A DNA stretch of 64,000 nucleotides. It comes from Deltaproteobacteria bacterium. GTDB lineage: Bacteria; Myxococcota; Kuafuiibacteriia; Kuafuiibacteriales; Kuafuiibacteriaceae. The position numbers and the translations under genes were made by a program. How positions within the stretch are numbered: the first letter of the stretch is position 1; each line of letters opens with the position of its first letter. Location: contig JAVJQW010000008.1 in NCBI GenBank assembly GCA_040218735.1, positions 128,001 through 192,000 of the forward strand, given 5' to 3'. Positions 40,040 to 57,267 of the stretch are shown piece after piece. The notes beneath the pieces were generated by a model that had not been told where the DNA came from, made no database searches, and saw only the letters and a list, made by a program, of their open reading frames with translations.

Positions 40040-41755
40040 ATGACACGGTCTCACCTGATGCGCTTCGCTCTCAGTTCCCTCCTCGCTGGCGCGGTCGCTT
40101 GCAGCGGCGGCGAAGACGACGACGACACCACGAACCCGCCCCGGGACGGCGGCGTCACCAACACCGAACGGGACGGCGGCGAGCCTCCCCGCGACGGCGG
40201 CGAGCCGGAGCGCGACGCGGGCATGGAAGACCCGATCCTCGTCTCCATCACCGTGGAGCCCGACACCGCCACGCTCGACATCGGCGCGACGCAAGGCCTC
40301 ACCGTCACCGGCACCTACGACGACAGCACGTCGGCCATCCTCACCGACGGTGTGACCTACCGGTCCTCCGACGACCTCGTCGCGACGGTCTCCGCGATGG
40401 GTTTGATCACTGCGGTCGACGTCGGCTCCGCCACCATCACCGTTTCGATCGACGCGTTCGAGGCGACCGTGGCCGTGACCGTCAACGCGATGCCCCCGGA
40501 TGACGTCTTCGTCGTGTTCGACGATGACTTCGGCGCTGACATCACGTTCGCGGATTTCGGCGGCTCCAACAACATGTACGAGGTCGACAACGGCATGGCG
40601 ATGGCGGGGACGTCATCGCTGCGCGTCGAGGTGCCCGCAAAGGGTTACACGGGCGGTGCCTTCGCGATCGCCGCGCCGCAGGATCTCACGATGTTCAACG
40701 CGCTGACCTTCTGGGCGCGTTCGAGCTCCGACCTCCCGCTCAACGTCACGGGCATCGCCAACGACGGCAACACCAACGTCTACCAGGCGGAGCTGAACGC
40801 CGTGCCGCTCACCGCCACGTGGACTCAGTTCGTGATTCCGATCCCGGACTCCTCGCGTCTGAGCGCGGTCAACGGACTCTTCCACTTCGCGGAGGGTTCC
40901 GAGGACGGTGCGTACACCATCTGGTTCGACCAGATTCAGTACGAAGTCATCGAGGCGTCGCGGCTCGGGACGCCGATGCCGGCCATCGCCACCGAGACGA
41001 TCATGCGTGACGTGGGTGCGACCTTCAACATCAACGGGACCTCGGTGACGACGCCGGTCGACGGCAATAACGTCACGATCTCGGCGCGGCCCCCCTACTT
41101 CACGTTCGCCTCTTCCATGCCTTCGGTCGCCACCGTCGACGCGATGGGGGTGGGTACGACGCTCGCGGAGGGCTCGACCGACATCACCGGCACACTCGCG
41201 GGCGTCGCCGCGGCCGGCACGCTCACCGTCAACGTGGCCGCACCGACGGTACCCACCGTCGCCGCGCCGACGCCGACGGTCCCCGCTGGCAACGTGATTT
41301 CGCTGTACAGCAACGCGTACACCAACTCGACGATCGACACGTGGTCCGCCGTCTGGGACAGCGCTGACGTCGCGGACGTGCAGGTCGCCGGCGACGACAA
41401 CAAGCTGTACACGAACCTCGTGTTCGCGGGCATCGAGTTCGTCGGTGGAAACTCGATCGACGCTTCGGCGATGACGCACTTCCACATGGACATCTGGACG
41501 GCGGACTCGACGGTGTTCCGCGTGAAGCTCGTCGACTTCGGCGCGGACAACGCCTTTGGCGGTGGTGACGACACGGAGCACGAGCTCACGTTCGACGGTG
41601 CCTCCACGCCGCCGCTCGCGACCGGTCAGTGGATGCAGCTCGAGCTTCCCATGACGGACTTCGTGAACCTCGCGAACGCCGCGAACATCTCGCAGATCGT
41701 CATCGTGGGTTCGACGAGCACCGTCTACGTCGACAACGTGTACTTCCATAACTGA
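40040..41755 (+). CDS. Surface lipoprotein with Ig-like (Big_2) and carbohydrate-binding-like domains
   Basis: Lipobox AVAC; RDGG linker; SITVEP...YRSSDDLVATVS Big_2; jelly-roll-like ends IWFDQIQY and VYVDNVYF. Confidence 0.7.
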   Translation: MTRSHLMRFALSSLLAGAVACSGGEDDDDTTNPPRDGGVTNTERDGGEPPRDGGEPERDAGMEDPILVSITVEPDTATLDIGATQGLTVTGTYDDSTSAILTDGVTYRSSDDLVATVSAMGLITAVDVGSATITVSIDAFEATVAVTVNAMPPDDVFVVFDDDFGADITFADFGGSNNMYEVDNGMAMAGTSSLRVEVPAKGYTGGAFAIAAPQDLTMFNALTFWARSSSDLPLNVTGIANDGNTNVYQAELNAVPLTATWTQFVIPIPDSSRLSAVNGLFHFAEGSEDGAYTIWFDQIQYEVIEASRLGTPMPAIATETIMRDVGATFNINGTSVTTPVDGNNVTISARPPYFTFASSMPSVATVDAMGVGTTLAEGSTDITGTLAGVAAAGTLTVNVAAPTVPTVAAPTPTVPAGNVISLYSNAYTNSTIDTWSAVWDSADVADVQVAGDDNKLYTNLVFAGIEFVGGNSIDASAMTHFHMDIWTADSTVFRVKLVDFGADNAFGGGDDTEHELTFDGASTPPLATGQWMQLELPMTDFVNLANAANISQIVIVGSTSTVYVDNVYFHN

Positions 41756-41764
41756 GTCACCGCT

Positions 41765-43147
41765 GTGAAAGAGCTACGCTTCCCCGAATCGTTCGTGTGG
41801 GGCGTAGCCACGTCGGCGTTCCAGATCGAGGGCGCGACCGAGAAAGACGGTCGCGCCCCGTCGATCTGGGACACCTTCGCGGCTCGCCCGGGTCAGATCG
41901 CCGACGGGAGCGATGGCAAGGTGGCTTGCGACCACTACCATCGCTACCCCGAGGACGTCGGACTCATGAAGTCACTGGGCGTCGCCGCGTATCGGTTCAG
42001 CGTCGCGTGGCCGCGCATCCTCCCCAAGGGGCGCGGTCACGTGAACGCGGCCGGCCTCGACTTCTATGACCGCCTCGTCGACGAGCTCCTACGGGCCGGC
42101 ATCGACCCGTGGGTGACGCTCTATCACTGGGACCTCCCGCAGGCCCTCGAGGATCACGGCGGGTGGACGGAGCGCACCAGCGCGCACGCCTTCGTCGAGT
42201 ACGCGGACGTGGTCTCACGGCGCCTCGGCGACCGCGTGCAGCACTGGATCACGCACAACGAGCCGTGGTGCTCGAGTGTCCTCGGCTACGCGCAGGGGGA
42301 GCACGCGCCCGGCAAGCGCTCTTGGGCCGACGCGCTCGCCGCGTCGCATCATCTCTTGCTCGGGCACGGGTGGTCGGTCCCCGTGATTCGGTCCAACGCG
42401 CGGGGTGCGGAGGTCGGGATCACGCTGAACCTGACACACGTGGATCCCGCGAGTCCGAGTGAGCACGACGCGCACTTCGCGCGGGTCATCGACGGTGAGA
42501 TCAACCGGTGGTACCTCGACCCGCTGTTTCGGGGAGAATATCCCGCCGACATCATCGAGCATCACCGACGCGAGGGGCACATCTCGACGGACGAGCTGGA
42601 GTTCGTCGAGCTCGGCGACCTCAGCGTGATGCGTGCGCCCGTCGATTTCCTCGGCATCAACTACTACACCCGCGCGATCGCGCGGAGCCCGTGGGTCGAT
42701 GAAAGTGACAACCTCCCGCGGACCATCGAAGAGCCGTCGGACGACGTGCGATCCGACATGGGTTGGGAGCAGTGGCCCGACGGCCTTCAGAACCTCCTTC
42801 TTCGCGTGAACGACGAGTACACCCCGCCGAAGATCTACATCACCGAAAATGGCGCGGCGTTCTCGACCGGACCCGACGCCACGGGTCGCGTCCCCGACAC
42901 GCGCCGCCAGAGCTACGTCGAGGAACATCTGAGGGCTTGCCTCACCGCCATCGAAGCGGGCGTGCCGCTCGAGGGCTACTTCCTGTGGTCCCTCCTCGAC
43001 AACTTCGAGTGGGCCTATGGCTACGAGAAACGCTTTGGCATCGTATGGGTCGACTTCGAAACCCAGGAGCGCATCGTGAAGGACACCGGACACTGGTACG
43101 CGGACGTCATCCGCCGCAACGGTCTGACCGCGGAGCACGCAGCGTGA
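41765..43147 (+). CDS. GH1 beta-glucosidase (cytoplasmic)
   Basis: FVWGVATSAFQIEGA, TLYHWDLPQ, THNEP acid/base, ITENG nucleophile, DNFEW. Confidence 0.95.
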   Translation: MKELRFPESFVWGVATSAFQIEGATEKDGRAPSIWDTFAARPGQIADGSDGKVACDHYHRYPEDVGLMKSLGVAAYRFSVAWPRILPKGRGHVNAAGLDFYDRLVDELLRAGIDPWVTLYHWDLPQALEDHGGWTERTSAHAFVEYADVVSRRLGDRVQHWITHNEPWCSSVLGYAQGEHAPGKRSWADALAASHHLLLGHGWSVPVIRSNARGAEVGITLNLTHVDPASPSEHDAHFARVIDGEINRWYLDPLFRGEYPADIIEHHRREGHISTDELEFVELGDLSVMRAPVDFLGINYYTRAIARSPWVDESDNLPRTIEEPSDDVRSDMGWEQWPDGLQNLLLRVNDEYTPPKIYITENGAAFSTGPDATGRVPDTRRQSYVEEHLRACLTAIEAGVPLEGYFLWSLLDNFEWAYGYEKRFGIVWVDFETQERIVKDTGHWYADVIRRNGLTAEHAA

Positions 43148-46100
43148 TCCGCTCGTCCCTCGTCGCCATCGCCATCCTGACCTCCGCCCCGGCATGGGCA
43201 CAGTCGTCGACCAGCTCCACGACGACGACCGCGTCGGTCGCCGCCCGCCCACCGCCCGCCGAATCCCCGCCGGTTCGCCGCTTTCAACCCACCCCGCGCG
43301 CCGAAGGGGCCCCGCACGTCGTGAAGACGTACCGCGACGAGCGGGGCCACCTCCTCCTCGTCGACGGCGTCCCCACGATGGTCTACGGGATGAACTGGGG
43401 CTACATGCCCATCGGCGAGAACTACTCGTACGACTTCTGGGGCAAGTCCGATGACTTCATCCGGGAGGCCCTCGACGCGGAGATTTCTCTGCTCCGCAAG
43501 ATGGGGATCAACGTCATCCGCCAGTACATCGGAATCCCCGCGAAGTGGATTCGGTACATCTACGAGAAACACGGAATCTTCACGGTCCTCAACCACCCCA
43601 TCGGCCGCTACGGCATGAACATCGACGGGGTCTGGGTGAGCCCCGTGGACTACTCCGACGAGCGAATGCGCGAAGTCATCCACGAAGAGATCGATGCGCT
43701 CGTCCGAAAGTACAAGGACGTCCCCGGCTTGATGATGTGGATGCTCGGGAACGAGAACAACTACGGCCTGTATTGGAAGTCGACGGAGATCGAAGACCTC
43801 CCCGAGGAGCAACAAGGCGATATCCGGGCGAAGTATCTGTACTCGCTGTTCGGCGAAGTCATCGATCGGATCCACAACCTCGACAGCAACCACCCGGTCG
43901 TCATCGCCAACGGCGACGTCGGGTTCATCGATGTCATCGCCGAGGAGTGCAAGAACGTCGACATCATGGGTTCGAACGTCTACCGCGGCGCCTCGTCGCG
44001 CGACCTCTTCGAAGTCATCGAGAAGAAGCTCGGCGTCCCGTTCATGTACACGGAGTTCGGCTCCGATGCGTTCGACGCCAAACGGATGCGTGAGGACCAC
44101 CTCGCACAGGCGGAGTACCTGCGGCTTCAGTGGCAGGAGATCTACGAACAGTCGTACGGCCACGGGAACGTAGGCAACGCGATCGGCGGGATGATCTTCC
44201 AGTGGAGTGACGGGTGGTGGAAGTACAAACAGACCGAGAACCTCGACGTCCACGACGAGACCGCCTCCTGGGCCACCGGCGCGTACCCCCACGACTACGT
44301 GGAGGGGCAGAACAACATGAACGAGGAGTGGTTCGGTATCGCGGCGAAGGGGCGCAACGACGAGCGCGGGCTCTACGAGGTCTACCCGCGGAGCGCCTAT
44401 TACCTGCTGCGCGAGGCCTTCCGCCTCGACCCCTACGCACCCTCCACGACCAACGAGAGGATCCGCGAGGTCTTCGGCGCCCTCGATCCGAAGGACTTCC
44501 AAGCGCGCTACGAAGCCACGCAGCTACGCTCGAAGATCGACTTCCTGGAGCGCGTCCGGCTCTCCCAGCTTCGGCTCGATCTCATGACCTTCACGACGGG
44601 TGGAAAGAACCTCAACATCGACGAACGCGAGCCGCGTCGCTTCGACCACCTCCAGTCCGCCTACGTGGGCATCGAGGCGCGCCCCGCCTCAGGCGTCCGT
44701 GCGGACGCTACGGTCAACGTCCTCGGCAACGTCGCGGTCAACCCCATCGACGAGATCTACTTCGAGCGCCGCGGGATCCCGGAAGAGGTTCGCAACACGG
44801 CCGGGGAGGAGGTCGTCCTGACCAGTCTCGAGCGTGTGAAACTCTACCAAGCATCCTTCGAGTGGGAGAACGACTGGTTCGCGGTCGAGGGCTACTATCG
44901 CAAGGGGCACTACCATTGGGGTTACGAGGGTGACTTCTTCGGGCTCTACCCGGAGGCCAACTACGAGCAAGCCGTCGATCAGTTCAACGCCGACACACCC
45001 AGCGGTGTCGTCTTCACCGGTAAGAAGGCGTTGGACGGCCTCAAGATCGCGTTCGGTCCGCAGCTCTACTGGGGCGCGAACCCAACGGTCATCTCGAAGT
45101 ACTACCGAACGATCGGCGACTGGGAGTTTTCTCTCATCCACCAGGAGGACATCGCCCAGCAGGCCTCCGCGCTGACCAGCTCGATCATCCCGCAGCCTCG
45201 AACGCGAAAGTCGACGATCTACGCAGCGCGCGAGTGGGGGCCGCTCAAACTTCAGGTCGGTGGAATCATGGCGGGTACGGACCGGCTGGGCCGTCGCTAC
45301 GTCTCCATCGAAGAGGCCGCCGAACCCACGTATCTCGAGTCAGGCTACTACGTGCTCGACGACGAGATCGAGCTGATCGACACCCTCGGCGCCAAGGCGC
45401 GCGTCACGCTCAACCTCAACCCCTTCTACTGGTACGTCCAGGGTGGCTACCGCGGGTTGGTCGCCGATGCGGGTGGTGACTGGTCCCTCAACATCACGAA
45501 CTGGTCGATGAAGGAGAGCGGGCAGGGCAACCACTGGGCGGTCTCGAGCGGCGCCGCGATGTACCTGGGTGACTTCGTCGTCGCGCCCAACTTCCTGTTC
45601 CAGAAGCCACTGGAGGGACCGCTGGTTCAGATCGAAGACGCGTTCGATCCGAACACCGGCACCTACTACCGCGGTGTCCTACCCAGAAACCAACTCAACG
45701 ATCCCTTCTGGGTTCGCTCCAACCGCGAAACCTACGGTTTCGAGCTCCTCCTCGCCTTCGATCCCACCCCCGACACGTTCATGTGGGCGTGGGACAACCT
45801 CCAGCGCGAGAACGCCTTCTTCACCGCTGCGCTCGACTTCACCTACAAGGTCCATCCCACGAGTCAGGATGCGGCGGTGGCCGTGGCGCAGGAGGGGTTC
45901 GTCTTCGCCTTCGCCGGGGCTGCTCCGGCTCGGAACCTCTGGGATGTGAGCCTCCGGACGATCTTCAACTTCCGCTCCGACATGCAGTGGGTCAACTGGC
46001 TCTACTCGGGCCGCGGGCAGGCGAACGGCGACGACGATCGCCTCGTCGTGCGGTACGGAACCTACGGTCGGTTCCGTTGGGATCAATTCGTCGCGCAGTA

Positions 46101-46359
46101 CCACGTCCGGCTCCACGACTGGGGCCCGTTCGATTACTACCGCGACTTCAACCTGACGTTCCCGCTCCAGACGTTGCTCGACATGAGCTACGCGTTGCAG
46201 ACGCCCGACTGGTTCGCGATCTCGCAGACGCGCCTCGGGCTGCGGGGTAAGTTCAGGTTGCTCGATGAGAACTCGGGGCGCTTCCAAGCCGACCCCGACG
46301 ATCCCGACGCGTTCGGCCAGGAGTGGGAGGTGCTCACCTATGTGCAGATCTCGATTTGA
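43144..46359 (+). CDS. Clan GH-A (GH2/GH158-like TIM barrel) glycoside hydrolase fused to a predicted outer-membrane beta-barrel
   Basis: Signal peptide; MGINVIRQY, WMLGNENN, YTEFG, FQWSDGWWK, NEEWFGI; about 600 aa of aromatic-rich amphipathic strands ending EVLTYVQISI; GTG overlaps the GH1 stop. Confidence 0.7.
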   Translation: MIRSSLVAIAILTSAPAWAQSSTSSTTTTASVAARPPPAESPPVRRFQPTPRAEGAPHVVKTYRDERGHLLLVDGVPTMVYGMNWGYMPIGENYSYDFWGKSDDFIREALDAEISLLRKMGINVIRQYIGIPAKWIRYIYEKHGIFTVLNHPIGRYGMNIDGVWVSPVDYSDERMREVIHEEIDALVRKYKDVPGLMMWMLGNENNYGLYWKSTEIEDLPEEQQGDIRAKYLYSLFGEVIDRIHNLDSNHPVVIANGDVGFIDVIAEECKNVDIMGSNVYRGASSRDLFEVIEKKLGVPFMYTEFGSDAFDAKRMREDHLAQAEYLRLQWQEIYEQSYGHGNVGNAIGGMIFQWSDGWWKYKQTENLDVHDETASWATGAYPHDYVEGQNNMNEEWFGIAAKGRNDERGLYEVYPRSAYYLLREAFRLDPYAPSTTNERIREVFGALDPKDFQARYEATQLRSKIDFLERVRLSQLRLDLMTFTTGGKNLNIDEREPRRFDHLQSAYVGIEARPASGVRADATVNVLGNVAVNPIDEIYFERRGIPEEVRNTAGEEVVLTSLERVKLYQASFEWENDWFAVEGYYRKGHYHWGYEGDFFGLYPEANYEQAVDQFNADTPSGVVFTGKKALDGLKIAFGPQLYWGANPTVISKYYRTIGDWEFSLIHQEDIAQQASALTSSIIPQPRTRKSTIYAAREWGPLKLQVGGIMAGTDRLGRRYVSIEEAAEPTYLESGYYVLDDEIELIDTLGAKARVTLNLNPFYWYVQGGYRGLVADAGGDWSLNITNWSMKESGQGNHWAVSSGAAMYLGDFVVAPNFLFQKPLEGPLVQIEDAFDPNTGTYYRGVLPRNQLNDPFWVRSNRETYGFELLLAFDPTPDTFMWAWDNLQRENAFFTAALDFTYKVHPTSQDAAVAVAQEGFVFAFAGAAPARNLWDVSLRTIFNFRSDMQWVNWLYSGRGQANGDDDRLVVRYGTYGRFRWDQFVAQYHVRLHDWGPFDYYRDFNLTFPLQTLLDMSYALQTPDWFAISQTRLGLRGKFRLLDENSGRFQADPDDPDAFGQEWEVLTYVQISI

Positions 46360-46963
46360 CGCCGTCTGGCTCCTTCCGGCGGTCATCGCCCTCCTCGCGG
46401 GGTGTGAGCTCGATCCGCAGCGCTATCGCTACGGCGAGAACATCACCGGGCTCCAGTTCGAGTACTTCGACGAGACCGAAGGGGTGCATCCGAGCCAGGT
46501 CGTCCTGCTGAACCCGAACAACCCATTCGTCGAGGCCCCGATCGGCGCCGAAACGAAGTTCGACCTGCTCACGGGGGGCGGAAACGCCGCCGGCTTCTAC
46601 GCGTGGGCCACGCTCCTCGCGACGGGCGCGAACGGCGAGAATCAGTTCTACGCGGCGACCAAGCTCCGCGACGTCTACTACGCGAACGAGGTGCCGCCCG
46701 AGGACTCCGAGAAGGTCCGCCTCCTCGCGATCGCCGCGTTTCAGTCGGTGCTCGACAACTTCCCGGACTCGGTGACCTTCGACGCGTCGGGCACGATCCC
46801 GTTCCCGCTCGCGACGCCCGCCTTCCAGGCGATCGTCGACCTCAACGGGCGACCCGAGGGTGACTGGGCGCTCGTGCAGGACGTGAACGGGAACCCCGTC
46901 GCCGTGAAGCGCGCGGGCGTCGATATCCCCCGCACCGTTGTGGAGGAGGAGGACGACTCTTGA
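46340..46963 (+). CDS. Hypothetical lipoprotein
   Basis: Lipobox LLAGC; overlaps the upstream gene by 20 bp. Confidence 0.7.
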   Translation: MCRSRFDAVWLLPAVIALLAGCELDPQRYRYGENITGLQFEYFDETEGVHPSQVVLLNPNNPFVEAPIGAETKFDLLTGGGNAAGFYAWATLLATGANGENQFYAATKLRDVYYANEVPPEDSEKVRLLAIAAFQSVLDNFPDSVTFDASGTIPFPLATPAFQAIVDLNGRPEGDWALVQDVNGNPVAVKRAGVDIPRTVVEEEDDS

Positions 46964-47631
46964 GGTACGTCAACGCAGCCTGCGTGGCACTGCTCGTCAC
47001 GAGCGCGTGCCGACTCGACCCCGGAACGCCCGACTATTCGGGCCACGTCGGACTGTTCGAGCCGGACGGCGACACGGAGCCCGTCGATGGGCCCGACCCC
47101 TACGAACCCGGCGAGGCGCGCCTCGCGTTCGGGTTGTTCTACGAGGGCGGGTTCTCGGACGTCATCGCGAGCAACGGAACGACCATCAACTACTTCATCT
47201 TCGTCATCGAGGGGACGTCCCAACTCACCTACGCGCAGGAGCCCTCGGACGATCGGGTCGAGGGGGTCGTGTCGGATCAAATCACCCTGGAGGGGACGCC
47301 GTTCTGGGGCGGCGGGTTCGTCTGGAACGAACCCATCGACATCTCGGAGTGGACTACGATGTACGTGAGTTTCAAGTCGAGCGACCCCTCGTTCGAAACC
47401 TTCGACCTTCAGGTACAATCGGGCGCGGGGGCCGCGGCCACCAACCTCGACCCGCGCGACTACGGCTACGTCAACGACGGCGAGTGGCACAACCTGGCCA
47501 TCCCCGTGCAGGACTTCGTCGCGGCCGGGTTCGACCCGGCCCAGACGCGTTCGCCGTTCATCCTCGCGTCCCCCGGAGGAGACGCGGGTGACGTGCTGCT
47601 GGTCGACAACCTCTACTACACGCAGGACTGA
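46960..47631 (+). CDS. Lipoprotein with galactose-binding-like/CBM-like domain
   Basis: Lipobox TSAC; WGGGF...DISEW...DGEWHNLAIPVQDF...VDNLYY. Confidence 0.65.
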   Translation: MRYVNAACVALLVTSACRLDPGTPDYSGHVGLFEPDGDTEPVDGPDPYEPGEARLAFGLFYEGGFSDVIASNGTTINYFIFVIEGTSQLTYAQEPSDDRVEGVVSDQITLEGTPFWGGGFVWNEPIDISEWTTMYVSFKSSDPSFETFDLQVQSGAGAAATNLDPRDYGYVNDGEWHNLAIPVQDFVAAGFDPAQTRSPFILASPGGDAGDVLLVDNLYYTQD

Positions 47632-47633
47632 AG

Positions 47634-49052
47634 TCAGGCCGCTCCGCGGCGCTGTTCCAACTCGCCCCGAATCTCCAGCGCTCGGTCTTCGGTGATCTCG
47701 TACCGAGCAATGAGCCAGATCGCGATCATCGAAGTCGCGGCAGGGATGAATGCGTCGAAGGCTCGCATCAGCATGATCGCCTCCGACGTCTGCTGGCCGT
47801 CGAGCTCGACGTCGAAGCCGGTGGCGTTGAGCAGGAAGCCGCCAGCGGCGAGCGCCGCCGCCATACCGAGCTTCACGACCCACCAGAAGATCGAGCCGAA
47901 CATCCCCTCCCGGCGCTGCGCGGTCTCGAGCTCGTCGAGGTCGACGACGTCCGCCACCATCGAAGGCATCAGCGTGAACAGGCCGCCGAGCCCGAACGCG
48001 AGGAAGGGCGCCGGCAGCACCACGAGCCACGGGTTGTTCGGGTCGTAGCAGAACCACTTCATGATGTAACCGAGCACGGACACGCCGGTCGTCAGGAAGA
48101 AGGCGCGCCGCTTTCCGAGCTTCGTGCCGAGGGCGGTGGCGATGATGATGACGACGAACGTCGAGACCGCGGAGAGACTCCCGGCGTAACCCGCGTACTC
48201 CGCTCCGGCGACTTTGTCGCCGCCGCACACGTAATAGATGATCACGTAGGACTGAAACGAAGAGATCAGCATGAAGCCGTTGAAGACGAGGAACGTCGCC
48301 CCGCACAGCTTCTGAAAGGGTCGGAACTTAAGCGTTGCACCGAATCCCTTGAAGAAACTCACGAGCTCTTCCCCGAGCCTCTTCTTGGCGCGCTCCGCTT
48401 TGGCGGGGCCGAGGCGCTCCCGGAGGAAGAGCGCCGGTAGAACGCCGATGCCCATCGTGACGACGCCGATGATGACGGCGAGACCGGCCGCGCCGTCCAT
48501 CATGTCGTCGAAGTAGTCCTCGGCCTGCATGAAGGCGAGGAACCAGGGCGACACCACGTACGCGAGCTGCCCGAGGAAGTTCTGGACGCCCATGAGGCGA
48601 GTGCGTTCGTGGTAGTCGGGCGTCAGCTCGTAGCCGAGCGCGACCCAGGGCGTCGCGTACATCGTGTACGCGAGGTAGAAGACGATGGATCCTGCGAGGA
48701 AGTAGACGAAGTAGAAGGTCTCGCTCTTGTCGCTCGGGAACTGCCAAAGAAGGATGAAGACCACGCCCGCGGCGAGCGCCCCGATGAAGATGTACGGGCG
48801 CCGGCGCCCCCACTTCGACTGGGTCTGGTCCGACACGTAACCCATGAGCGGGTCGGTCAGCGCGTCGGTGAGGCGGGGCAGCGCGCCGAGGAGTCCGACG
48901 AGCGCTGGGTTCATGCCGAGCCCGAGGTTCAGCACGATCGTCATCCCACCGATCGCCGCTGCGAGTAAGTTGTTGATGAGTGCGCCGAGGCCGTAGATCA
49001 GCTTGGCGGCGAAGGTGATTCGGTCTTCGGGGCGCGTCGTGTGGTCGCTCAT
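47634..49052 (-). CDS. MFS transporter, glycoside-pentoside-hexuronide (GPH) family
   Basis: DALTDPLMGYVSDQTQSKWGRRRPY, ELTPDYHERT, ADVVDLDE...RREG. Confidence 0.92.
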   Translation of the reverse strand: MSDHTTRPEDRITFAAKLIYGLGALINNLLAAAIGGMTIVLNLGLGMNPALVGLLGALPRLTDALTDPLMGYVSDQTQSKWGRRRPYIFIGALAAGVVFILLWQFPSDKSETFYFVYFLAGSIVFYLAYTMYATPWVALGYELTPDYHERTRLMGVQNFLGQLAYVVSPWFLAFMQAEDYFDDMMDGAAGLAVIIGVVTMGIGVLPALFLRERLGPAKAERAKKRLGEELVSFFKGFGATLKFRPFQKLCGATFLVFNGFMLISSFQSYVIIYYVCGGDKVAGAEYAGYAGSLSAVSTFVVIIIATALGTKLGKRRAFFLTTGVSVLGYIMKWFCYDPNNPWLVVLPAPFLAFGLGGLFTLMPSMVADVVDLDELETAQRREGMFGSIFWWVVKLGMAAALAAGGFLLNATGFDVELDGQQTSEAIMLMRAFDAFIPAATSMIAIWLIARYEITEDRALEIRGELEQRRGAA

Positions 49053-49879
49053 CGAGGCGCCCGCTCGAACACGCGCACGTAATCGACGAGCATCTCGGCG
49101 GGGAAGACGGTGTCCGAACCGACGGGCCCGACGAAGCTGCCGCCGACCGCAACGTTGAGCAGGAGGAAGAACGGGTGATCGAACACCCAGTCACCACGCG
49201 CTTGGACCTCGGGGGTCGTGACGACCTGATAGACGACGTCGTCGACCAGGAACGCGATTCGCCCCGGATCCCACTCCACGGCAAAGATGTGGAAGTCATC
49301 CGTGAAGCTCTCGTCCTCGGGGAGCGCGAACTTACTCGTAATGGGGCTGCCCCCCGAGTAGCCGGGTCCGTGCAGCGTGCCGTGGACGACGCGCGGCTCT
49401 TGGCCGCGGAACTCCATGATGTCGATCTCACCCGCGCGGGGCCAGTCCGTCTCGGGGAAGTTCGCGCCCAGCATCCAGAACGCGGGCCAGATGCCCTGCC
49501 CCGGGGGGAGCTTGATGCGCGCTTCGAAGCGCCCGTACTTCTGCTCCACCAGGCCCTTGGACTTGATGCGCCCCGAGGTATACGCGCGGCCCATGTAGTC
49601 TTCTTCGCGGGCGACGATGCGGAGGTTTCCGTTGCCGTCGTGGGAGACGTTCTCGGTGCGGTCGGTGTCGAACTCGAGCTGGTTGTTGCCCCACCCGTCG
49701 CCGCCGACGTCGAAGGTCCACATCGCGGGATCCGGCGACGTGCCTTCGGCGCCGTCGAACTCGTCGTACATCGTCACGATCCAGGACACGGGTGGCTCCA
49801 CGACCGGACCTTCTCCAATCTCACATCCCACGATGCTCGCGGCGATGACGACGACCCACGGCTTGAAACCAACCATCAT
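49049..49879 (-). CDS. GH16 laminarinase-like endo-beta-1,3-glucanase, probable lipoprotein
   Basis: GWGNNQLE, GIWPAFWMLG, WPRAGEIDIME catalytic motif, LNVAVGG; lipobox IVGC. Confidence 0.92.
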   Translation of the reverse strand: MMVGFKPWVVVIAASIVGCEIGEGPVVEPPVSWIVTMYDEFDGAEGTSPDPAMWTFDVGGDGWGNNQLEFDTDRTENVSHDGNGNLRIVAREEDYMGRAYTSGRIKSKGLVEQKYGRFEARIKLPPGQGIWPAFWMLGANFPETDWPRAGEIDIMEFRGQEPRVVHGTLHGPGYSGGSPITSKFALPEDESFTDDFHIFAVEWDPGRIAFLVDDVVYQVVTTPEVQARGDWVFDHPFFLLLNVAVGGSFVGPVGSDTVFPAEMLVDYVRVFERAPR

Positions 49880-51138: not shown

Positions 51139-52755
51139 CTACGGGCAGGTGTCGCAGCGACCGTAGGCCGCCTCGGTGGTCGTGGGCGCGTCGGGCACCG
51201 TGATTTGCCGGTTCGCGAAGGTCGCGCCGTCGGTGACGGGCGCGCAAGCTCCGTTGCCGGCCATGACGTCGTCGATCAGGTCCTCCTGCGAGGCGAAGTT
51301 GTCGATCATGTACTTGAACTCGAGCGGTCCGGCCGGGAGCGGGAACGTCCCAGAGTAGACGCCGTCGGTGTCCGGGTCGGTGAGCTCGAACCCACCGTCG
51401 CACCACGAGCAGAAGGGCCCGGTCACGAAGACCGTCGTGAACGTCTCCGTCGTGCAACTCATGTCGACGGAGAAGGTCACGTTGTACTCACACGAGCCGT
51501 CGTCGTTCGTCGCGTTGGGGTCGAAGTTGACGGCATCCGTGTCGGTGCAGCCATCGCCCGGGCCGCCGCCCGTGTCCGACGGGTCGTTCTTGTACTGAAT
51601 GTCGTCCACGTAGAACTCGATCGTGTTTCCGGGTGAGGTCGCAACCCATCCGAACCCACCCGCGATGTCCGCGTAGTCCGTGCCGACCAAGAGGATCTGG
51701 TACTCAGTGGGCGTCGCAGCCAGCGTGATCTCCGGAGTCTCCAACGCAAACCCATCCGGCCCCGCGTAACCCACCAGGAATTTCACGACCTCGCCGCCCT
51801 GTGCGCCCCACGCCCAGAAGTTGATGCGCGTCGCACCCTGCGGGACCGGGAAGCCGTCCGCCTCGCCCCAGTTGCCGTCGGGGTACTGCCAGAACACGCC
51901 GCCCCATCCGTTCGGGCCGCCCGCGGTGTACGTGAACGCGTGGCAGAGCCCGGCCTGATCCCCGGCGCGCGTGGGGCAGACTTCAACCGCCGTGATTCCG
52001 CCCGACTCACCATCACCCATGAACCCACTCGGCGCGTAGACATCGTCGACGACGAGCGGGAGCTCCGTACTCACCGCGGGGCACCGTCCGAACGTAAAGG
52101 GTTCGAAGACCGTGTCGGCGGCGGGCATGGTGAGCTCGCGCGCGAGCCCCCCCGACGCGGTGACGCCGCACGCGGCGTCGATGGGTTCTTCGCGGATGGG
52201 ATCGCTGCCGATCACGAACCGCAAGTTGTGTTGCTGCGCCGTGATGACGATCGTTCCGCGGTACACGTTGTCCTGATCACCGTCGGTGAGTACGGCGCAG
52301 GTCCCGCACCAGTTGTTGAAACTCCCGTGCACGTACACGCCGTCGGCGCGGTCGAAGTCCTGAACCCCGGACATGTCCACGCGAAGCGTCGCGATGTAGC
52401 GGCAGGAGCCGTCGTCGTCCGTCGCGGTGTCACTGAAGTTCACGGCCGCGGCGTCCGTGCAGCCGTCGTAGCGACAGGAGCCGTCGTCCGTCGTCGCGGT
52501 CGGGTTGTAGTTGTTCGCTCCGGCGTCCGTGCAGCCGACGCCCGAGTACGTACACGACCCGTCGTCGATCGACGCCCGAGGCAGGAAGTTCTCGGCGAAG
52601 CGATCGGTGCAGCCGACCACCGGCTCCGTGGTGGGCACGCACTGGTTCCCCTGGCGCTCCGTCCCCTCGGGGCAGGGGTTTTCGGGCTCGAACGTGCTCG
52701 AACACCCTACGGCGAGGGCGAAGAGGGCGATCGGGGCTCGGTGAAGGGTACGCAT
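51139..52755 (-). CDS. Multi-domain lipoprotein with GCTD...DDGSC repeats and CBM-like modules
   Basis: Lipobox AVGC; four GCTDxxAxN(F/Y)xxxAxxDDGSC units; two VDMS...G.F..WC modules; central GWGGVFWQYPDGNWG domain. Confidence 0.7.
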   Translation of the reverse strand: MRTLHRAPIALFALAVGCSSTFEPENPCPEGTERQGNQCVPTTEPVVGCTDRFAENFLPRASIDDGSCTYSGVGCTDAGANNYNPTATTDDGSCRYDGCTDAAAVNFSDTATDDDGSCRYIATLRVDMSGVQDFDRADGVYVHGSFNNWCGTCAVLTDGDQDNVYRGTIVITAQQHNLRFVIGSDPIREEPIDAACGVTASGGLARELTMPAADTVFEPFTFGRCPAVSTELPLVVDDVYAPSGFMGDGESGGITAVEVCPTRAGDQAGLCHAFTYTAGGPNGWGGVFWQYPDGNWGEADGFPVPQGATRINFWAWGAQGGEVVKFLVGYAGPDGFALETPEITLAATPTEYQILLVGTDYADIAGGFGWVATSPGNTIEFYVDDIQYKNDPSDTGGGPGDGCTDTDAVNFDPNATNDDGSCEYNVTFSVDMSCTTETFTTVFVTGPFCSWCDGGFELTDPDTDGVYSGTFPLPAGPLEFKYMIDNFASQEDLIDDVMAGNGACAPVTDGATFANRQITVPDAPTTTEAAYGRCDTCP

Positions 52756-52786: not shown

Positions 52787-52809
52787 GTCCCTCTCCGGGG
52801 CAGTGTCAA
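52780..52809 (-). promoter_or_regulatory. Sigma70-type promoter TTGACA-18bp-TAGTTT
   Basis: tgtcaa at 52804-52809 (TTGACA on the minus strand); aaacta at 52780-52785 (TAGTTT). Confidence 0.7.
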
Positions 52810-55800
52810 GTCGAGCCGAGGAGGCGGTCCGCCGGGATGTCGACCTCGATGCGGTCGACGCGGCCGGTCCGCTCGAAGAGCGCGGCGGAGGTCTCGGCGT
52901 CGAGGATCCCGCCCTTGGCCACGTCCACGTCGCCCCCACCGTACACACGCGCGACGAGGGTGTCGCCGGACGCGACGCGCACGTAGACGACCGGGACCTG
53001 GCAGACTGTGAAGCCGAGCGCGCCGGCCGGCAGCGTCATGCGGTCGGGGGCGCCGCCGACGCGGAAGAAGGACCACGACGCCGGCGCCGCGAGGAGCTCC
53101 TCGGCGCGAAGCAGCGTCGGGTCGAACCGCAGACGGCCGCCCTCGACCGAAATCCCGAGCTCGCCGCGACGTGTGAGGACCTCTTCCTTCACCTGCCCGG
53201 TCATGCCGGGTTGCTGCGCGCTGGCGTGACCGGGGGTGTGGGAGTACGGGTCGGTGGGGAACGCGCCGTAGACCTCGGGGGACTTCGTGAACCCGAGGCC
53301 GTCGCGCACGCGGTAGTACGCGTCGGCGAGGCGCGCCGTGACGCCTGCGTCCTCGCCGCTCTCGACGGCGGCGAAGAAGCGCTCCTGCACCGCCAGCAAG
53401 AGCTTCGACACCATGTGCCAGTAGATCGATCCGATCCCCTCGTAGCCGTACATCGTGCCCGACCGCCCCGTGAACGCGCGGTGCCCGAACACGTCTTCGT
53501 AGAGCGCGCAGGTCTCGTCGCCGTGGGCCTCGACGAGCGCACGCCACACATCGTCGAGCTCCGCGAGCGCCTCCCGCAAACTGCCGACGTTCTCCAGCGC
53601 GGGCGCGAAACGATGCTGCCCGCGCGCGTCGACCGCGACGATCGACGTCTCGTCGGCCTCCACGAGCGCCGACAGCAGTGGGTTCGCCGCGACGTCCGCC
53701 GCGTCGACGACGTTTTTGTCGAGGAACCCGGGGAGCGCGCGGGCCGGGTAGAGCATGAAGCTGTTCTGATCCGCGCGGTACATCGCGCTGTCGAACAGCG
53801 CGTCGATGAGCGCGAGCGCCTCCTTCGCGTCGAGGCGGCCCGAGCTCAGCACCGCGACTTGCCCCTCCAACATCTCGTAGAGGTGCTCGACCCCCGCGCC
53901 CTCGTCGTCCGCGTGCAGCACGTTGTACGCGTGGTAGAGGCCGTCGGGCCGGAGGCTCGCCGCGATCGCGTGGTCGGCGTAGCGCAGCGCCACGCGGCAC
54001 AGCGCAACCAAGTCGTCTCGGCGCCGACGCTCGCGTCCGGTGAGGCCGTGTTCGTAGAGCGACGCGCGGTAGTCGGCGTAGGGAGCGCCGAGGGCGTCGA
54101 GCACTTCGCGGCGCGCGGCGTCCGACACTGCGGGGGCGTCCAGGAGACCGGCGTGTTCTTCGAGCGCCGCGCGGATCGCGTCGAACCAAACCGCGACCTC
54201 CGTCGACAGCTCGACCGCCTCCGGCGCGGACGCCGCGAGCCAGTCCTCGAAGAACGCGAGGTAACGCCGCAGGTAGTCGAGCGTCACCATCGACAGCCCG
54301 TAGCCGGCGAGCGCGTTGTTCGCGTCGTTCCACTCCGGTCGCTGCGTGTTCATCCAGATGCCGCCGTCCACGACGAGGTTCGACAGCTTCGCGAGCGCCG
54401 GTACCAACAGCTTCTCGACCAGGTTCACGTGCCGAATCGACCCGTCCGCGTCGCGCAGGAGCTTGCCGTCCGTCCCGCCCGCCTCCACCCGCGCAGCGAT
54501 CGCGGCGTCGTGTGCCTCGTCCAGCTCGATGCTCGAACGCGGGTTCGCGAGCAACGCCTCGTAGGGGCGGATGCGGTACGGAACGTCGGCGTAGGAGAAG
54601 ATCGCTTCGGTCGCCCATGCCGTGAGCCGCTCCGGGTGGTGCGCGCGCGACAGCTCTAGCAGACGGAGCAGGTACACGATCTGGTGGTCGCCCCAGTACC
54701 CGATGTTGCTCCACGGAGCGTCGGGCTCGGGCACCTCCCACTCGATCCCTTCGCGCGTGACGCGGTACGGGTTGTAGCCGTCCGCGGTCGACGCGTTGAG
54801 GAACTTCGCGACGATGCCCTCCACGAACGCCGGGAACGCGGTGCACAGCGCCTCCCAGTTCTGGAAGATGTCGCGCCAGTTCCCCTGGTACTCGAGGCGC
54901 TGGTTGCCCGCTTCGTCCACGAGGTGGATCGCGAAGCGATTCCAGGGGCGGCTCGGATCACCGTGTCGGCGGCTGAAGGTGATCGGGAGGTACTCGAGCC
55001 CGAGGCGGTGCAGGTTCGGATCTTCGGTCGTCGAGAAGCGTTCGTGGAGCGCGTCGATCGACAAACGCTCCGGGAGCGCTTCGAGCAGCGCCCGGTGTGT
55101 CTCGAACGCGGCGCGGTTTCGCGTGCGCACGAAGTCGGCGACGTCGGCGCCCGGGACGTCGTCGTCGAACGCAAACACGCCGCCGCGCATGTTGTTGAAG
55201 AGGACGTTCGCGAAGTGGTGCGCGTTCGCGGTCGGGTCGGCGGTGTGCTGCAGCCCGTCGGCGCTCGCGACGTTTTGTATCAAGCGATCCGTTCCGGCGG
55301 AGATCTCCTCGGCGAGTATCGTGTCCCAGTCGCGCTCGGCCTCGAGCTCGGCGCGGAGCGCTTCGACCTTCGACTGACTCTGCGCGACGTCGGCGACGAG
55401 ATGCCAACGCACAGGCTCCCCGGGCGACAGCGTCAGGTGTTTGTCCAGGACGTACGCGCCGCGCCGCCCGGTGAGGACCGCCGGTCCGTTCGGTGACTCG
55501 CGGGTGCGAACATCGGCGCCGTCCAACCCGTGGCTCCAGACCACCGTCGCCCGCAACGACTCCGCGGGCTCGGCGCGGTCGGAGAGCTTGGCCTCCAGTG
55601 TGAACAGTCCAAGGCGACCGTCGATCTCGCTGCGACGGTACGCGTTCACGAGGTTGCTCATCTGCTGTTGCGCGGCGAGGTCCACGCCGTGAGGCATCAC
55701 GTTGCGTAGGCCATCGACGATGTGCACGTCGGTCGTTCGTTCCGCGACGAGCGTCGCGCTGCGAACCCATCCGTAGCGCGACGACGAGGACCACGCGTAA

Positions 55801-56153
55801 CGGAAAGTCAGGCCGAGCTCGGCGTGGTGCTCCTCGAACACGATTCGATTCCCCGGGATGTTCTTGTGGAGGGCGGCGCGCCGTTCCCCCGTGAACGGCC
55901 GCCACGTCACATCGCCGACGCGCAGCTGGGTGAACGGTCCCGTGTGCGGCGCCGACAGGTGAAGGCGATCGTCGGTCTCGTACGGGAAGAGGCAGCGCGA
56001 CGCATCGACGCGCCCGGCCGTCAGCCCGCCGCGGCTCGACACGAACATCCAGTGGTCGGCGTCGCTGACGACGCTCATCAAGAACGGGGGGAGCTGGTCG
56101 ACTTGGTCGATGCGGAGCATCGCCTCACCGTCGACGTCGACGAGGGGGAGCAC
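52806..56153 (-). CDS. GH149 beta-1,3-glucan (laminarin) phosphorylase
   Basis: PFLMSVVSDADHWMFVSSRGGLTAGR, RRHGDPSRPWN, GNWRDIFQNWEAL, RPEWNDANNAL, YEGIGSIYWHMVSK, FPTDPYSHTP, QPGMTGQVKE; about 1115 aa. Start is GTG 56153 or ATG 56120. Confidence 0.85.
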   Translation of the reverse strand: MLPLVDVDGEAMLRIDQVDQLPPFLMSVVSDADHWMFVSSRGGLTAGRVDASRCLFPYETDDRLHLSAPHTGPFTQLRVGDVTWRPFTGERRAALHKNIPGNRIVFEEHHAELGLTFRYAWSSSSRYGWVRSATLVAERTTDVHIVDGLRNVMPHGVDLAAQQQMSNLVNAYRRSEIDGRLGLFTLEAKLSDRAEPAESLRATVVWSHGLDGADVRTRESPNGPAVLTGRRGAYVLDKHLTLSPGEPVRWHLVADVAQSQSKVEALRAELEAERDWDTILAEEISAGTDRLIQNVASADGLQHTADPTANAHHFANVLFNNMRGGVFAFDDDVPGADVADFVRTRNRAAFETHRALLEALPERLSIDALHERFSTTEDPNLHRLGLEYLPITFSRRHGDPSRPWNRFAIHLVDEAGNQRLEYQGNWRDIFQNWEALCTAFPAFVEGIVAKFLNASTADGYNPYRVTREGIEWEVPEPDAPWSNIGYWGDHQIVYLLRLLELSRAHHPERLTAWATEAIFSYADVPYRIRPYEALLANPRSSIELDEAHDAAIAARVEAGGTDGKLLRDADGSIRHVNLVEKLLVPALAKLSNLVVDGGIWMNTQRPEWNDANNALAGYGLSMVTLDYLRRYLAFFEDWLAASAPEAVELSTEVAVWFDAIRAALEEHAGLLDAPAVSDAARREVLDALGAPYADYRASLYEHGLTGRERRRRDDLVALCRVALRYADHAIAASLRPDGLYHAYNVLHADDEGAGVEHLYEMLEGQVAVLSSGRLDAKEALALIDALFDSAMYRADQNSFMLYPARALPGFLDKNVVDAADVAANPLLSALVEADETSIVAVDARGQHRFAPALENVGSLREALAELDDVWRALVEAHGDETCALYEDVFGHRAFTGRSGTMYGYEGIGSIYWHMVSKLLLAVQERFFAAVESGEDAGVTARLADAYYRVRDGLGFTKSPEVYGAFPTDPYSHTPGHASAQQPGMTGQVKEEVLTRRGELGISVEGGRLRFDPTLLRAEELLAAPASWSFFRVGGAPDRMTLPAGALGFTVCQVPVVYVRVASGDTLVARVYGGGDVDVAKGGILDAETSAALFERTGRVDRIEVDIPADRLLGST

Positions 56154-56241
56154 GGGCCGTGAACCTGGCAGACGCCGGACGTCGCCGTCTAGGGGGTGAC
56201 TAGGGGTGGCGTCGCGCGACGTCGGGAGGCAGGCTCGGTGC

Positions 56242-57267
56242 GTGCGTCGGTCTCCCTTACTGTTCTTGCTCGCGGCGGCGTGTGCGTCGGCGCAGAAGCC
56301 GGCGCCGACACCGAACACAACGACACCGATCACACAGGCGCCGAACGCGCTGCTCGCCGACACCTCGCGGGCGATCGCCTATTCGGGCTACCGCGAAGGG
56401 CAACACCCGGATCGCGGAGACGGCGAGGTTGCGCCGAGCGACGATCAGCTCCTCGAAGACCTGAAGATCCTCGTCGCCGCCGACTTCACGCTGATTCGCC
56501 TCTATGACTCCGGTGCGTTGTCGACGCGGGTACTGAAGCTCATCGCCGCGCATGACCTCCCGATCCGCGTGATGCTCGGAGCTTGGTTGCAAGCCGAGTT
56601 GTCCAACCACGAAGGGTGCGCGTGGTTGACCGAGCCGATCCCCGAAGCCGAGCTCGCCGCGAACACAAAGGCGAACGGCGAGGAGGTCCAGCGCGTGATT
56701 GCGCTGGCGAATCAGTATCCGAGGATCGTCGTCGCGGTGAACGTCGGCAACGAGGCGCTCGTCACCTGGAACGATCACCTCGTCGCGCTCGACGCGATGC
56801 TCGCGTACATGAAGACGGTGAAGGCGGCGATCGCGCAGCCGGTCACGACCGCCGACAACTACGTCGTGTGGCGCGAGCAGGGCGCGGCGCTCATGACGGT
56901 CGCGGACTTCGCGGCGATCCACACCTACCCGGCGTGGGAGAACAAAACGATCGACGAGGCGATGGCGTACACGATCGAGAACCTCCAGGGCGTGCGCGAC
57001 GCGATCCCCGCGGCGCAGCTCGTGATCGCCGAGGCGGGGTGGGCGACGACCGCCGTGGAGTTTCCCACGGCGAACGAAGCGAACCAGACGCGCTACTTTC
57101 GCGAGCTCATGGCGTGGGCAAAGACGTCGAACGTCACCACGTTCTTTTTCGAAGCCTTCGACGAACCCTGGAAGGGCCACCTCGCGAACCCCGACGGCGC
57201 CGAGAAACACTGGGGGCTGTGGTTCGTGGACCGAACGCCGAAGGCGGCGCTGAAGTCTCTTCAGTAG
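56242..57267 (+). CDS. GH17 beta-1,3-glucanase/glucosidase lipoprotein
   Basis: AYSGYREGQHP, IRLYD, VGNEA, IHTYPAWE, IAEAGWAT, FEAFDEPWKG, EKHWGL; lipobox AAAC. Confidence 0.88.
   Translation: MRRSPLLFLLAAACASAQKPAPTPNTTTPITQAPNALLADTSRAIAYSGYREGQHPDRGDGEVAPSDDQLLEDLKILVAADFTLIRLYDSGALSTRVLKLIAAHDLPIRVMLGAWLQAELSNHEGCAWLTEPIPEAELAANTKANGEEVQRVIALANQYPRIVVAVNVGNEALVTWNDHLVALDAMLAYMKTVKAAIAQPVTTADNYVVWREQGAALMTVADFAAIHTYPAWENKTIDEAMAYTIENLQGVRDAIPAAQLVIAEAGWATTAVEFPTANEANQTRYFRELMAWAKTSNVTTFFFEAFDEPWKGHLANPDGAEKHWGLWFVDRTPKAALKSLQ

Follow-up and report, generated by a model that had tools for sequence, protein, structure and literature searches.

How might laminarin, a β-1,3-glucan, cross the outer membrane of a bacterium whose laminarin gene cluster encodes no TonB-dependent transporter (TBDT)? 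The question is raised by a stretch of 64,000 nucleotides (the window) from a Deltaproteobacteria bacterium of the Myxococcota (GenBank assembly GCA_040218735.1, contig JAVJQW010000008.1, positions 128,001 to 192,000 of the forward strand), and in particular by one open reading frame (ORF) within it, 43144-46359 on the + strand. Laminarin is among the most abundant marine glycans. SusC/D of Bacteroidota is the paradigm for outer-membrane glycan uptake, and the passage of polysaccharide fragments above the porin limit is currently held to need TBDTs. The ORF very probably encodes a clan GH-A glycoside hydrolase (GH) fused to a predicted outer-membrane β-barrel in one secreted chain. It belongs to a large cross-phylum family that pairs a predicted β-1,3-glucanase with an undescribed barrel in laminarin loci without nearby TBDTs.

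The frame is open over 1071 codons and translates into a product of 1071 residues. A 4-nt overlap joins its GTG start to the stop of the GH1 gene upstream, and the start coincides with the N-termini of 35 homologues in the alignment. The best full-length homologues are found at E = 0, and by sequence comparison the existence of the feature is far beyond chance. A first-pass annotation made from the letters alone had described a signal peptide, a clan GH-A TIM barrel with the motifs GNENN and YTEFG, and about 600 aromatic-rich residues in alternating strands with a β-signal-like end. All of these can be located: the motif Glu residues are invariant in 36 of 36 sequences, the strand region measures 601 residues with 15% Phe, Trp and Tyr, and its tail is conserved. 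The full-length AlphaFold2 model has a mean predicted local distance difference test (pLDDT) of 81.7 and a predicted template modelling score (pTM) of 0.71. From residue 471 (window position 44554) to the end, long antiparallel strands only are seen, both in this model and in one of the C-terminal part.

The outer-membrane barrel that the first-pass annotation had predicted is borne out by the second model. Residues 461-1071 were folded alone in AlphaFold2 with a 53-row alignment that included distant and stand-alone relatives, giving pLDDT 93.3 and pTM 0.89. About 26 wall strands of 7-18 residues are counted by DSSP, in strict hairpin order, with three short hairpins in long loops excluded. 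Two-residue turns always lead from an even strand to the next odd one, and long loops (17-40 residues) always from an odd strand to the next even one. The predicted structure thus has the general traits of an outer-membrane barrel, namely a signal peptide, an even strand number, and short turns alternating with long loops. At the C-terminus, hydrophobic residues alternate, and L, Y, I, M or F closes the chain in 110 of 119 homologues. The window's copy has a terminal I (EWEVLTYVQISI), in keeping with the hydrophobic or aromatic terminal residue of a β-signal.

Structural comparison places the model among known barrels. In Foldseek, all listed matches of the C-terminal model are outer-membrane barrels (MOMP, chitoporin, PirA/PfeA/BtuB, OccK, AlgE). 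In the VIA search, which is independent of Foldseek, 50 of 50 listed rows are membrane barrels, led by AlgE (Z 15.1), OmpM1 (14.7) and MOMP (14.2). Residues 10-611 of the model also align with the 24-strand ushers FimD and PapC and with 22-strand TBDTs, among them BtuB (360 residues, root-mean-square deviation 4.6). Since barrels of 22 and 24 strands align end to end, a single large barrel is more plausible than a pair of small ones.

The most conserved part of the predicted barrel is a long loop, HWGYEGDFFGLYPE, in which columns H591, W592, G596, D597 and F599 are invariant or nearly so; the search tool picked W..EGD[FYH]FG[LI] as the family pattern. By analogy with loop 3 of sugar porins, this loop (HWGYEGDFFG) would be a candidate sugar-binding aromatic-acidic constriction. 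As far as sequence comparison tells, the barrel belongs to no described family. It was set apart from TBDT/SusC proteins, with no Plug or TonB_dep_Rec Pfam match in the product at E up to 1, a TIM barrel as N-terminal domain, and about 26 strands, not 22. Kinship with DUF5916 and DUF6029, which in Pfam are uncharacterised domains of about 550 residues and probable barrels, was also rejected. The hhalign probability was 0.2 against a DUF5916 protein and 0.2 for DUF6029, the latter despite an Atlas feature score of 0.93 that had served as the lead. As an observation in its own right, a protein of 780-1010 residues with carbohydrate-binding module (CBM) CBM9 and DUF5916 is encoded just upstream of the homologue in four Gemmatimonadota loci (L049:3958-6984, L057:7270-9621, and the same cluster in L064 and L066). 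DUF5916 (about 570 residues), fused to CBM9 in these loci, might also be a membrane barrel.

The enzyme domain is, from its predicted fold and its aligned motifs, a clan GH-A retaining hydrolase that is closer to GH158/GH157 than to GH2. This assignment rests on the structural matches and the aligned invariant Glu residues. In Foldseek with the full model, GH158 comes first (9p26, E 1.2e-12; 6pal, 1.9e-12), followed by GH157 (9g4n, 2.3e-11), with GH2 and GH35 enzymes ranking below. The sole phmmer matches in the PDB are GH158 chains, 9oro (E 9.8e-5) and 6pal (0.005), and a 36-sequence profile finds 6pal at E 1e-6. GH157 and GH2 score nearly as high as GH158 when the domain is compared by sequence. 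The GH158 pattern is an (α/β)8 barrel whose strand 4 bears the acid/base Glu and whose strand 7 bears the nucleophile, and the predicted domain conforms to it: E204 and E304 lie in GNE and TEFG, which pair with GNE and TEWG of BuGH158 (6pal). By DSSP there is no Ig-like domain after the TIM barrel, just two short strands and helices and then the membrane barrel.

The GH2 label attached to this protein and its relatives did not hold up. Pfam on the whole protein returns Glyco_hydro_2_C only, a borderline match over residues 108-212 (21.1 bits against a cut-off of 21), and no GH2_N or GH2 match for the product. NCBIfam gives nothing usable (GalB, 14.6 against a cut-off of 900). Membership of GH2 was rejected, as neither its sugar-binding and Ig-like domains nor a full-length match to the GH2 TIM barrel is seen. 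The substrate of the domain is likely to be β-1,3-glucan, judging by the locus context (GH16, GH17, GH149, GH1 and GH3 neighbours). Some relatives carry additional modules before the enzyme: about 280-300 extra N-terminal residues without a Pfam family in P0080 and P0086, and CBM_4_9 in P0205.

The model also bears on which side of the membrane the glucanase lies. In porins, short turns are periplasmic and long loops external. Given the strict parity of turns and loops and a periplasmic C-terminus, the start of strand 1, and hence the attachment of the enzyme, would also be periplasmic. Large barrels with an N-terminal periplasmic domain are well known (LptD, BamA, ushers, PgaA/BcsC). Strand parity and these precedents together make a periplasmic glucanase the somewhat favoured arrangement.

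The family is large and widespread. A full-length search returned 4777 proteins at E <=0.001 among 8000 scored candidates. The 119 listed relatives cover 74-100% of the query at 49-65% identity, under names such as hypothetical protein, β-galactosidase and "GH2 TIM barrel-domain containing" (NCBI/JGI). Species-representative genomes contain at least 804 stretches that encode a relative, of which 80 loci were analysed. These represent Myxococcota, Gemmatimonadota, Krumholzibacteriota, Latescibacterota, Eisenbacteria, Ignavibacteria, Fibrobacteraceae and Bacteroidota, and they include cultured Myxococcus (L042, Myxococcus sp.), Pyxidicoccus and Chryseobacterium (L071, Chryseobacterium aquaticum). 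All named carrier lineages of the fusion family are diderm. Two Bacteroidota metagenome-assembled genomes hold broken homologues (L068, G004:C11:91967-95007; L076, G005:C9:373152-376130), one lying in two frames and the other with two TGA and one TAA; these are pseudogenes or long-read assembly errors.

The barrel also occurs by itself. A barrel-only search found 392 representatives in a library clustered at 50% identity, 107 of them at E <=1e-30. At about 570-600 residues, stand-alone barrels begin with a signal peptide of their own, lack the enzyme domain and end in ...Y.F, and the Pfam scan assigned them no family. They retain the conserved loop motifs of the fused barrel. As such versions exist, the barrel itself would serve some function. 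Stand-alone barrels were used as seeds in a metagenome scan, which found 573 relatives, and 80 loci were analysed: enzyme and barrel share one frame in 66, the contig begins within the frame in nine, and a stand-alone barrel ORF starts inside the contig in five (L099-L102, L111). In L100 and L101 it comes after a large GH16-containing protein (1153 residues in L101). Type I secretion genes (OEP, HlyD, ABC) lie directly downstream of the stand-alone barrel in L101 (5353-10021) and also in the window (28547-33095, - strand), about 10 kb upstream of the locus; they may export the large glucanases.

TBDTs are rarely found near the fusion gene in homologue loci. In the window, no Plug or SusD family was matched in any ORF supported by GC content at third codon positions, in agreement with the first-pass annotation. 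The source genome has 17 Pfam Plug matches, none on the contig of the window. A custom Plug hidden Markov model, made from these 17 matches and one TBDT, found nothing in the window, one match among the 80 genome loci (L059, 3-7 kb upstream) and none among the 80 metagenome loci. Flanks were scanned up to 10 kb, many contigs being shorter. As a control, the model recovered nine of ten plug regions from Bacteroidota, picked to span the range of Pfam scores. A Pfam Plug search of five Bacteroidota genomes placed the nearest match on the target's contig 20 kb away (G001), among the matches listed; six further matches lay outside those listed. One TBDT was found when 42 representative large neighbour ORFs were scanned with Pfam. 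These counts contradict the idea that homologue loci always include a SusC/D pair.

The surroundings are, as predicted from family matches, a conserved β-1,3-glucan (laminarin) catabolic cluster (Table 1); the laminarin context noted at first reading is upheld by the GH16, GH149, GH1 and GH17 neighbours. A tightly coupled + strand operon (Big_2 lipoprotein, GH1, fusion gene, u232, u223) faces a convergent - strand group (MFS_2, GH16 lipoprotein, ROK, CBM48-like lipoprotein, GH149). The GH149 phosphorylase recurs in 22 of the genome loci and 29 of the metagenome loci (80 of each). In Gemmatimonadota, a GH3 gene pair lies directly downstream of the fusion gene instead.

Table 1. Features of the fusion gene and of the surrounding cluster, in window coordinates
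Feature	Position	Strand	Basis
Lipoprotein with Big_2 domain and conserved C-terminal half; candidate surface glycan-binding protein	40040..41755	+	Pfam; lipobox LAGAVA|C; 40/80 genome loci
GH1 β-glucosidase, no signal peptide	41765..43147	+	Pfam E 1.8e-164; 27/80 genome loci
Signal peptide (Sec), residues 1-20, ...APAWA|Q	43144..43203	+	Read from translation; start matches homologue N-termini
Ser/Thr/Pro-rich disordered linker, residues 21-58	43204..43317	+	pLDDT <50 for residues 1-45; variable in homologues
Predicted clan GH-A (α/β)8 hydrolase domain, GH158/GH157-like, residues 59-435	43318..44448	+	Foldseek; profile against PDB
GNENN motif, residues 202-206; E204 (43753-43755) putative acid/base	43747..43761	+	Invariant 36/36; aligns with GNE of 6pal
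YTEFG motif, residues 302-306; E304 (44053-44055) putative nucleophile	44047..44061	+	Invariant 36/36; aligns with TEWG of 6pal
Helical linker, helices 437-446 and 449-468/470, leading straight into strand 1	44449..44553	+	DSSP, both models
Predicted single outer-membrane β-barrel, ~26 strands, residues 471-1071	44554..46356	+	AlphaFold2, Foldseek, VIA
Most conserved barrel motif HWGYEGDFFGLYPE, residues 591-604, long loop between strands 5 and 6	44914..44955	+	Alignment columns; putative role
Conserved 20-residue turn DPTP.T....WDN...E(D/N)A, short-turn (periplasmic) side	45760..45816	+	Kept in fused and stand-alone forms
C-terminal β-signal-like strand EWEVLTYVQISI	46321..46356	+	Alternating hydrophobics; terminal residue kept in homologues
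u232, conserved lipoprotein of no known family, lipobox LLAG|C; candidate barrel partner	46340..46963	+	Start and lipobox read from sequence
u223, lipoprotein (VTSA|C) with weak galactose-binding-like/CBM-like C-terminus	46960..47631	+	Pfam Exop_C E 6.8e-4, below cut-off; 13/80 genome loci
MFS_2 sugar:cation symporter (inner-membrane importer)	47634..49052	-	Pfam E 5e-62; 32/80 genome loci
GH16 lipoprotein, laminarinase-type	49049..49879	-	Pfam E 1.6e-26; lipobox SIVG|C; 47/80 genome loci
ROK-family regulator, N-terminal helix-turn-helix	49876..51117	-	Pfam; 32/80 genome loci
Lipoprotein with CBM48/AMPK1_CBM-like modules	51139..52755	-	Pfam; lipobox LAVG|C
GH149 β-1,3-oligoglucan phosphorylase, 1185-codon ORF	52806..56363	-	PDB 6hq6 E = 0, residues 71-1176
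GH17-like protein	56206..57267	+	Pfam Glyco_hydro_17 E 1.7e-7, C-terminal part only

Several details of the cluster deserve mention. The GH149 ORF opens about 70 codons before the region aligned with 6hq6 and there overlaps the GH17-like gene on the other strand; its true start is probably further downstream. The lipoproteins at 40040-41755, 46960-47631 and 51139-52755 carry a similar motif, ...(V/I)(D/Y)(N/D)(V/L/I)(Y/Q)(F/Y)..., which is C-terminal in two of them and mid-protein in the third. This suggests that the three share a CBM-like module missed by Pfam. Downstream of u232, 36 of the 80 metagenome loci encode a further GH158-like protein, about 600 residues long (e.g. L146:12568-14400), with a TIM domain like that of the fusion protein and a region like the CBM48-like lipoprotein of the window. 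The window itself has no second protein of this kind.

The gene directly downstream, u232, may provide a partner for the barrel. Its ATG (46340) overlaps the end of the fusion gene by 20 nt. A homologue is directly downstream in 69 of the 80 metagenome loci and in 16 of the 62 genome loci whose DNA continues for 700 bp or more downstream (L030 counted), and 17 of the 80 genome loci contain a homologue; the genome figure of 16 in 62 indicates that the adjacency is clade-specific. The lipobox is present wherever an N-terminus was found, and the protein has no Pfam match and no usable Atlas match. When the barrel and u232 were predicted as a complex, both given as alignments, three runs gave ipSAE 0.54, 0.54 and 0.00, and the best of three controls gave 0.00. 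In calibration, 116 of 157 solved complexes and 2 of 215 mismatches attained the mark, and scores <=0.60 include only 18 of the passing solved complexes but both passing mismatches. Agreement of contacts from run to run is reported as at least 0%, and the pLDDT of the partner as at least 70. The complex prediction thus gives weak support to u232 as a probable docking partner of the barrel in some clades.

Taken together, these data lean towards the fusion protein being the outer-membrane component of a TonB-independent laminarin (β-1,3-glucan) utilisation system. Surface lipoproteins (GH16, the Big_2 protein, CBM-like proteins) would bind and nick the glucan outside the cell. Glucan chains or oligosaccharides would then cross the barrel, with the HWGYEGDFFG loop as a binding constriction; on balance the barrel is modestly favoured as an outer-membrane channel for whole chains of laminarin or for β-1,3-gluco-oligosaccharides. 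The glucanase tethered to it, most likely periplasmic, would shorten the entering chain and so keep the gradient and prevent back-sliding, and u232 would dock on the barrel in part of the family. The MFS_2 symporter would import the products to the cytoplasm, where the GH149 phosphorylase and GH1 (GH3 too) would complete the breakdown. The coupling of cutting to import is the conjectural part of this scheme. A bolder version, which is tentative and rather unlikely, treats the single chain as both pore and motor. In it the barrel of about 26 strands threads laminarin past a processive-type glucanase at the periplasmic exit, and hydrolysis, acting as a Brownian ratchet in place of TonB, gives direction; such a machine would replace SusC/D in thousands of species of at least eight diderm phyla. 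A ratchet is conceivable because one GH158 enzyme is described in PMC13195107 as processive, with a tunnel-like active site.

Several points weigh against uptake through the fusion protein. An open barrel of 26 strands would be a very large hole, and u232 was rejected as a universal plug for it, not being adjacent in 46 of 62 genome loci. BuGH158 is a surface enzyme, and the CBM_4_9 at the N-terminus of one relative is more usual in enzymes that meet their polymer extracellularly. Among the listed Foldseek matches, known barrels reach query-normalised TM-scores of just 0.18-0.38, which leaves the barrel without a close template. Many of the loci are short contigs, so that the absence of TBDTs there is weak evidence. 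A search for RNA evidence on the gene found none. In PMC12175321, a SusC gene is reported in 7 of 11 Woeseiaceae laminarin loci that include GH158, and some lineages may therefore combine both routes beyond the 10-kb flanks.

The most basic objection, that the C-terminal region is no membrane barrel at all, was anticipated by the first-pass annotation. On this account the last 600 residues would be soluble β-sandwich or CBM-like domains of an ordinary secreted glycosidase, as the GH2 and β-galactosidase names given by NCBI and JGI would suggest, true GH2 enzymes having β-sandwich domains. No soluble sandwich occurs among the listed Foldseek matches or the 50 VIA rows. The strands instead follow in strict hairpin succession, barrels of 22 and 24 strands align end to end, the tail resembles a β-signal, and the named carriers are all diderm. 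As every listed structural neighbour is a membrane barrel, this account is rejected as extremely improbable. A barrel could also work outwards, secreting a self-made β-glucan, with a periplasmic glucanase to trim it or clear it away, as in AlgE/AlgL, BcsC/BcsZ and PelB/PelA. The alginate export porin AlgE is the top VIA match and the barrels of PelB (Z 11.8) and PgaA (10.7) are listed too, yet AlgE aligns over only 306 of the 611 model residues and has fewer strands. Pfam scans of the window matched no glycosyltransferase or synthase family, and the conserved neighbours belong to catabolism and import (GH1, GH3, GH16, GH149, MFS_2, ROK). An exporter is very unlikely.

A stronger competitor, still unlikely, is that the barrel serves as an anchor only. 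The linker helix would carry the glucanase through the barrel to the surface in the manner of an autotransporter, and uptake would follow another route. A helix of 20 residues stands right before strand 1, as in type Va autotransporters; the characterised Bacteroides GH158 is a surface enzyme; and the CBM_4_9 of P0205 fits surface display. PMC7157763 speaks of cell-surface glycosidases. Twenty-six strands are nevertheless far more than an anchor needs, autotransporters having 12. Membership of type Va was rejected, the product showing no Pfam Autotransporter match and its barrel measuring about 600 residues. A folded TIM barrel of 380 residues would be a poor passenger, barrels that lack a passenger have the conserved loop motifs all the same, and no other outer-membrane uptake component is encoded in the scanned loci.

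If the barrel is the uptake route, it would explain laminarin feeding by Myxococcota, Gemmatimonadota, Latescibacterota, Krumholzibacteriota and others, provide a new annotation marker for polysaccharide loci outside Bacteroidota, and offer a simple one-gene system in which enzyme-coupled passage across the outer membrane can be studied. Were the ratchet importer true, a considerable fraction of β-glucan turnover in sea and soil might pass through it. Two unannotated families, the barrel and the u232 lipoprotein, are also supplied for family databases. The enzyme-barrel fusion, the barrel family and the u232 family appear to be new, and an outer-membrane nutrient channel of a polysaccharide locus is a known type. 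No description of a fusion of a glycoside hydrolase with an outer-membrane barrel was found in full-text literature searches or in passages of PMC13195107, PMC5827456 and PMC12175321 (supplements aside); Fig. S15 and Table S11 of PMC12175321 might show such fusion genes labelled GH158. The earlier account was right about the fusion and had overlooked the conserved downstream lipoprotein and the stand-alone barrels.

Comparison with known systems shows a recombination of familiar traits. GH158 (BuGH158, 6pal; GH158(Pro), 9oro/9p26) and GH157 (LaGH157, 9g4n) share the clan GH-A fold, the aligned Glu motifs and the setting in β-1,3-glucan loci, at a structural identity of 14-16% and sequence E-values of 1e-6 to 1e-4. 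Both solved GH158 structures have an Ig-like domain behind the TIM barrel, according to PMC13195107, and here it is replaced by the predicted outer-membrane barrel. In EstA and PlpD (type V), too, a single chain runs from an N-terminal enzyme to a C-terminal barrel, and a helix precedes strand 1. Their barrels, of 12 or 16 strands, export the attached passenger, whereas here there is no family match and the barrel also exists passenger-free.

LptD-LptE, a barrel of 26 strands with the lipoprotein inside, resembles the fusion family in strand count and in the order of N-terminal domain (periplasmic, here presumably so) and barrel, and a lipoprotein of about 190 residues is encoded next door in part of the family, an LptE-like trait. 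Cargo and direction of transport differ and there is no Pfam match; LptD does not figure among the top 50 VIA rows listed, but may still be related. Sugar porins (LamB/ScrY, ChiP, CymA, OprB) would be alike as TonB-independent oligosaccharide channels with a conserved aromatic-rich inward loop as the presumed binding site, and ChiP, maltoporin, CymA and OprB are among the structural matches of the barrel. They have 14-18 strands and no fused enzyme, and they show no sequence similarity and a TM-score of <=0.38. SusC/SusD and other TBDTs differ in that here there is no Plug, no SusD and no evident energy coupling, the strands number about 26 instead of 22, and an N-terminal enzyme takes the place of the plug. 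Likewise a large barrel, and the would-be uptake component of a locus with surface lipoproteins, the fusion protein resembles them in outline, and BtuB and the SusC-like BT1762 align over its whole barrel model in VIA.

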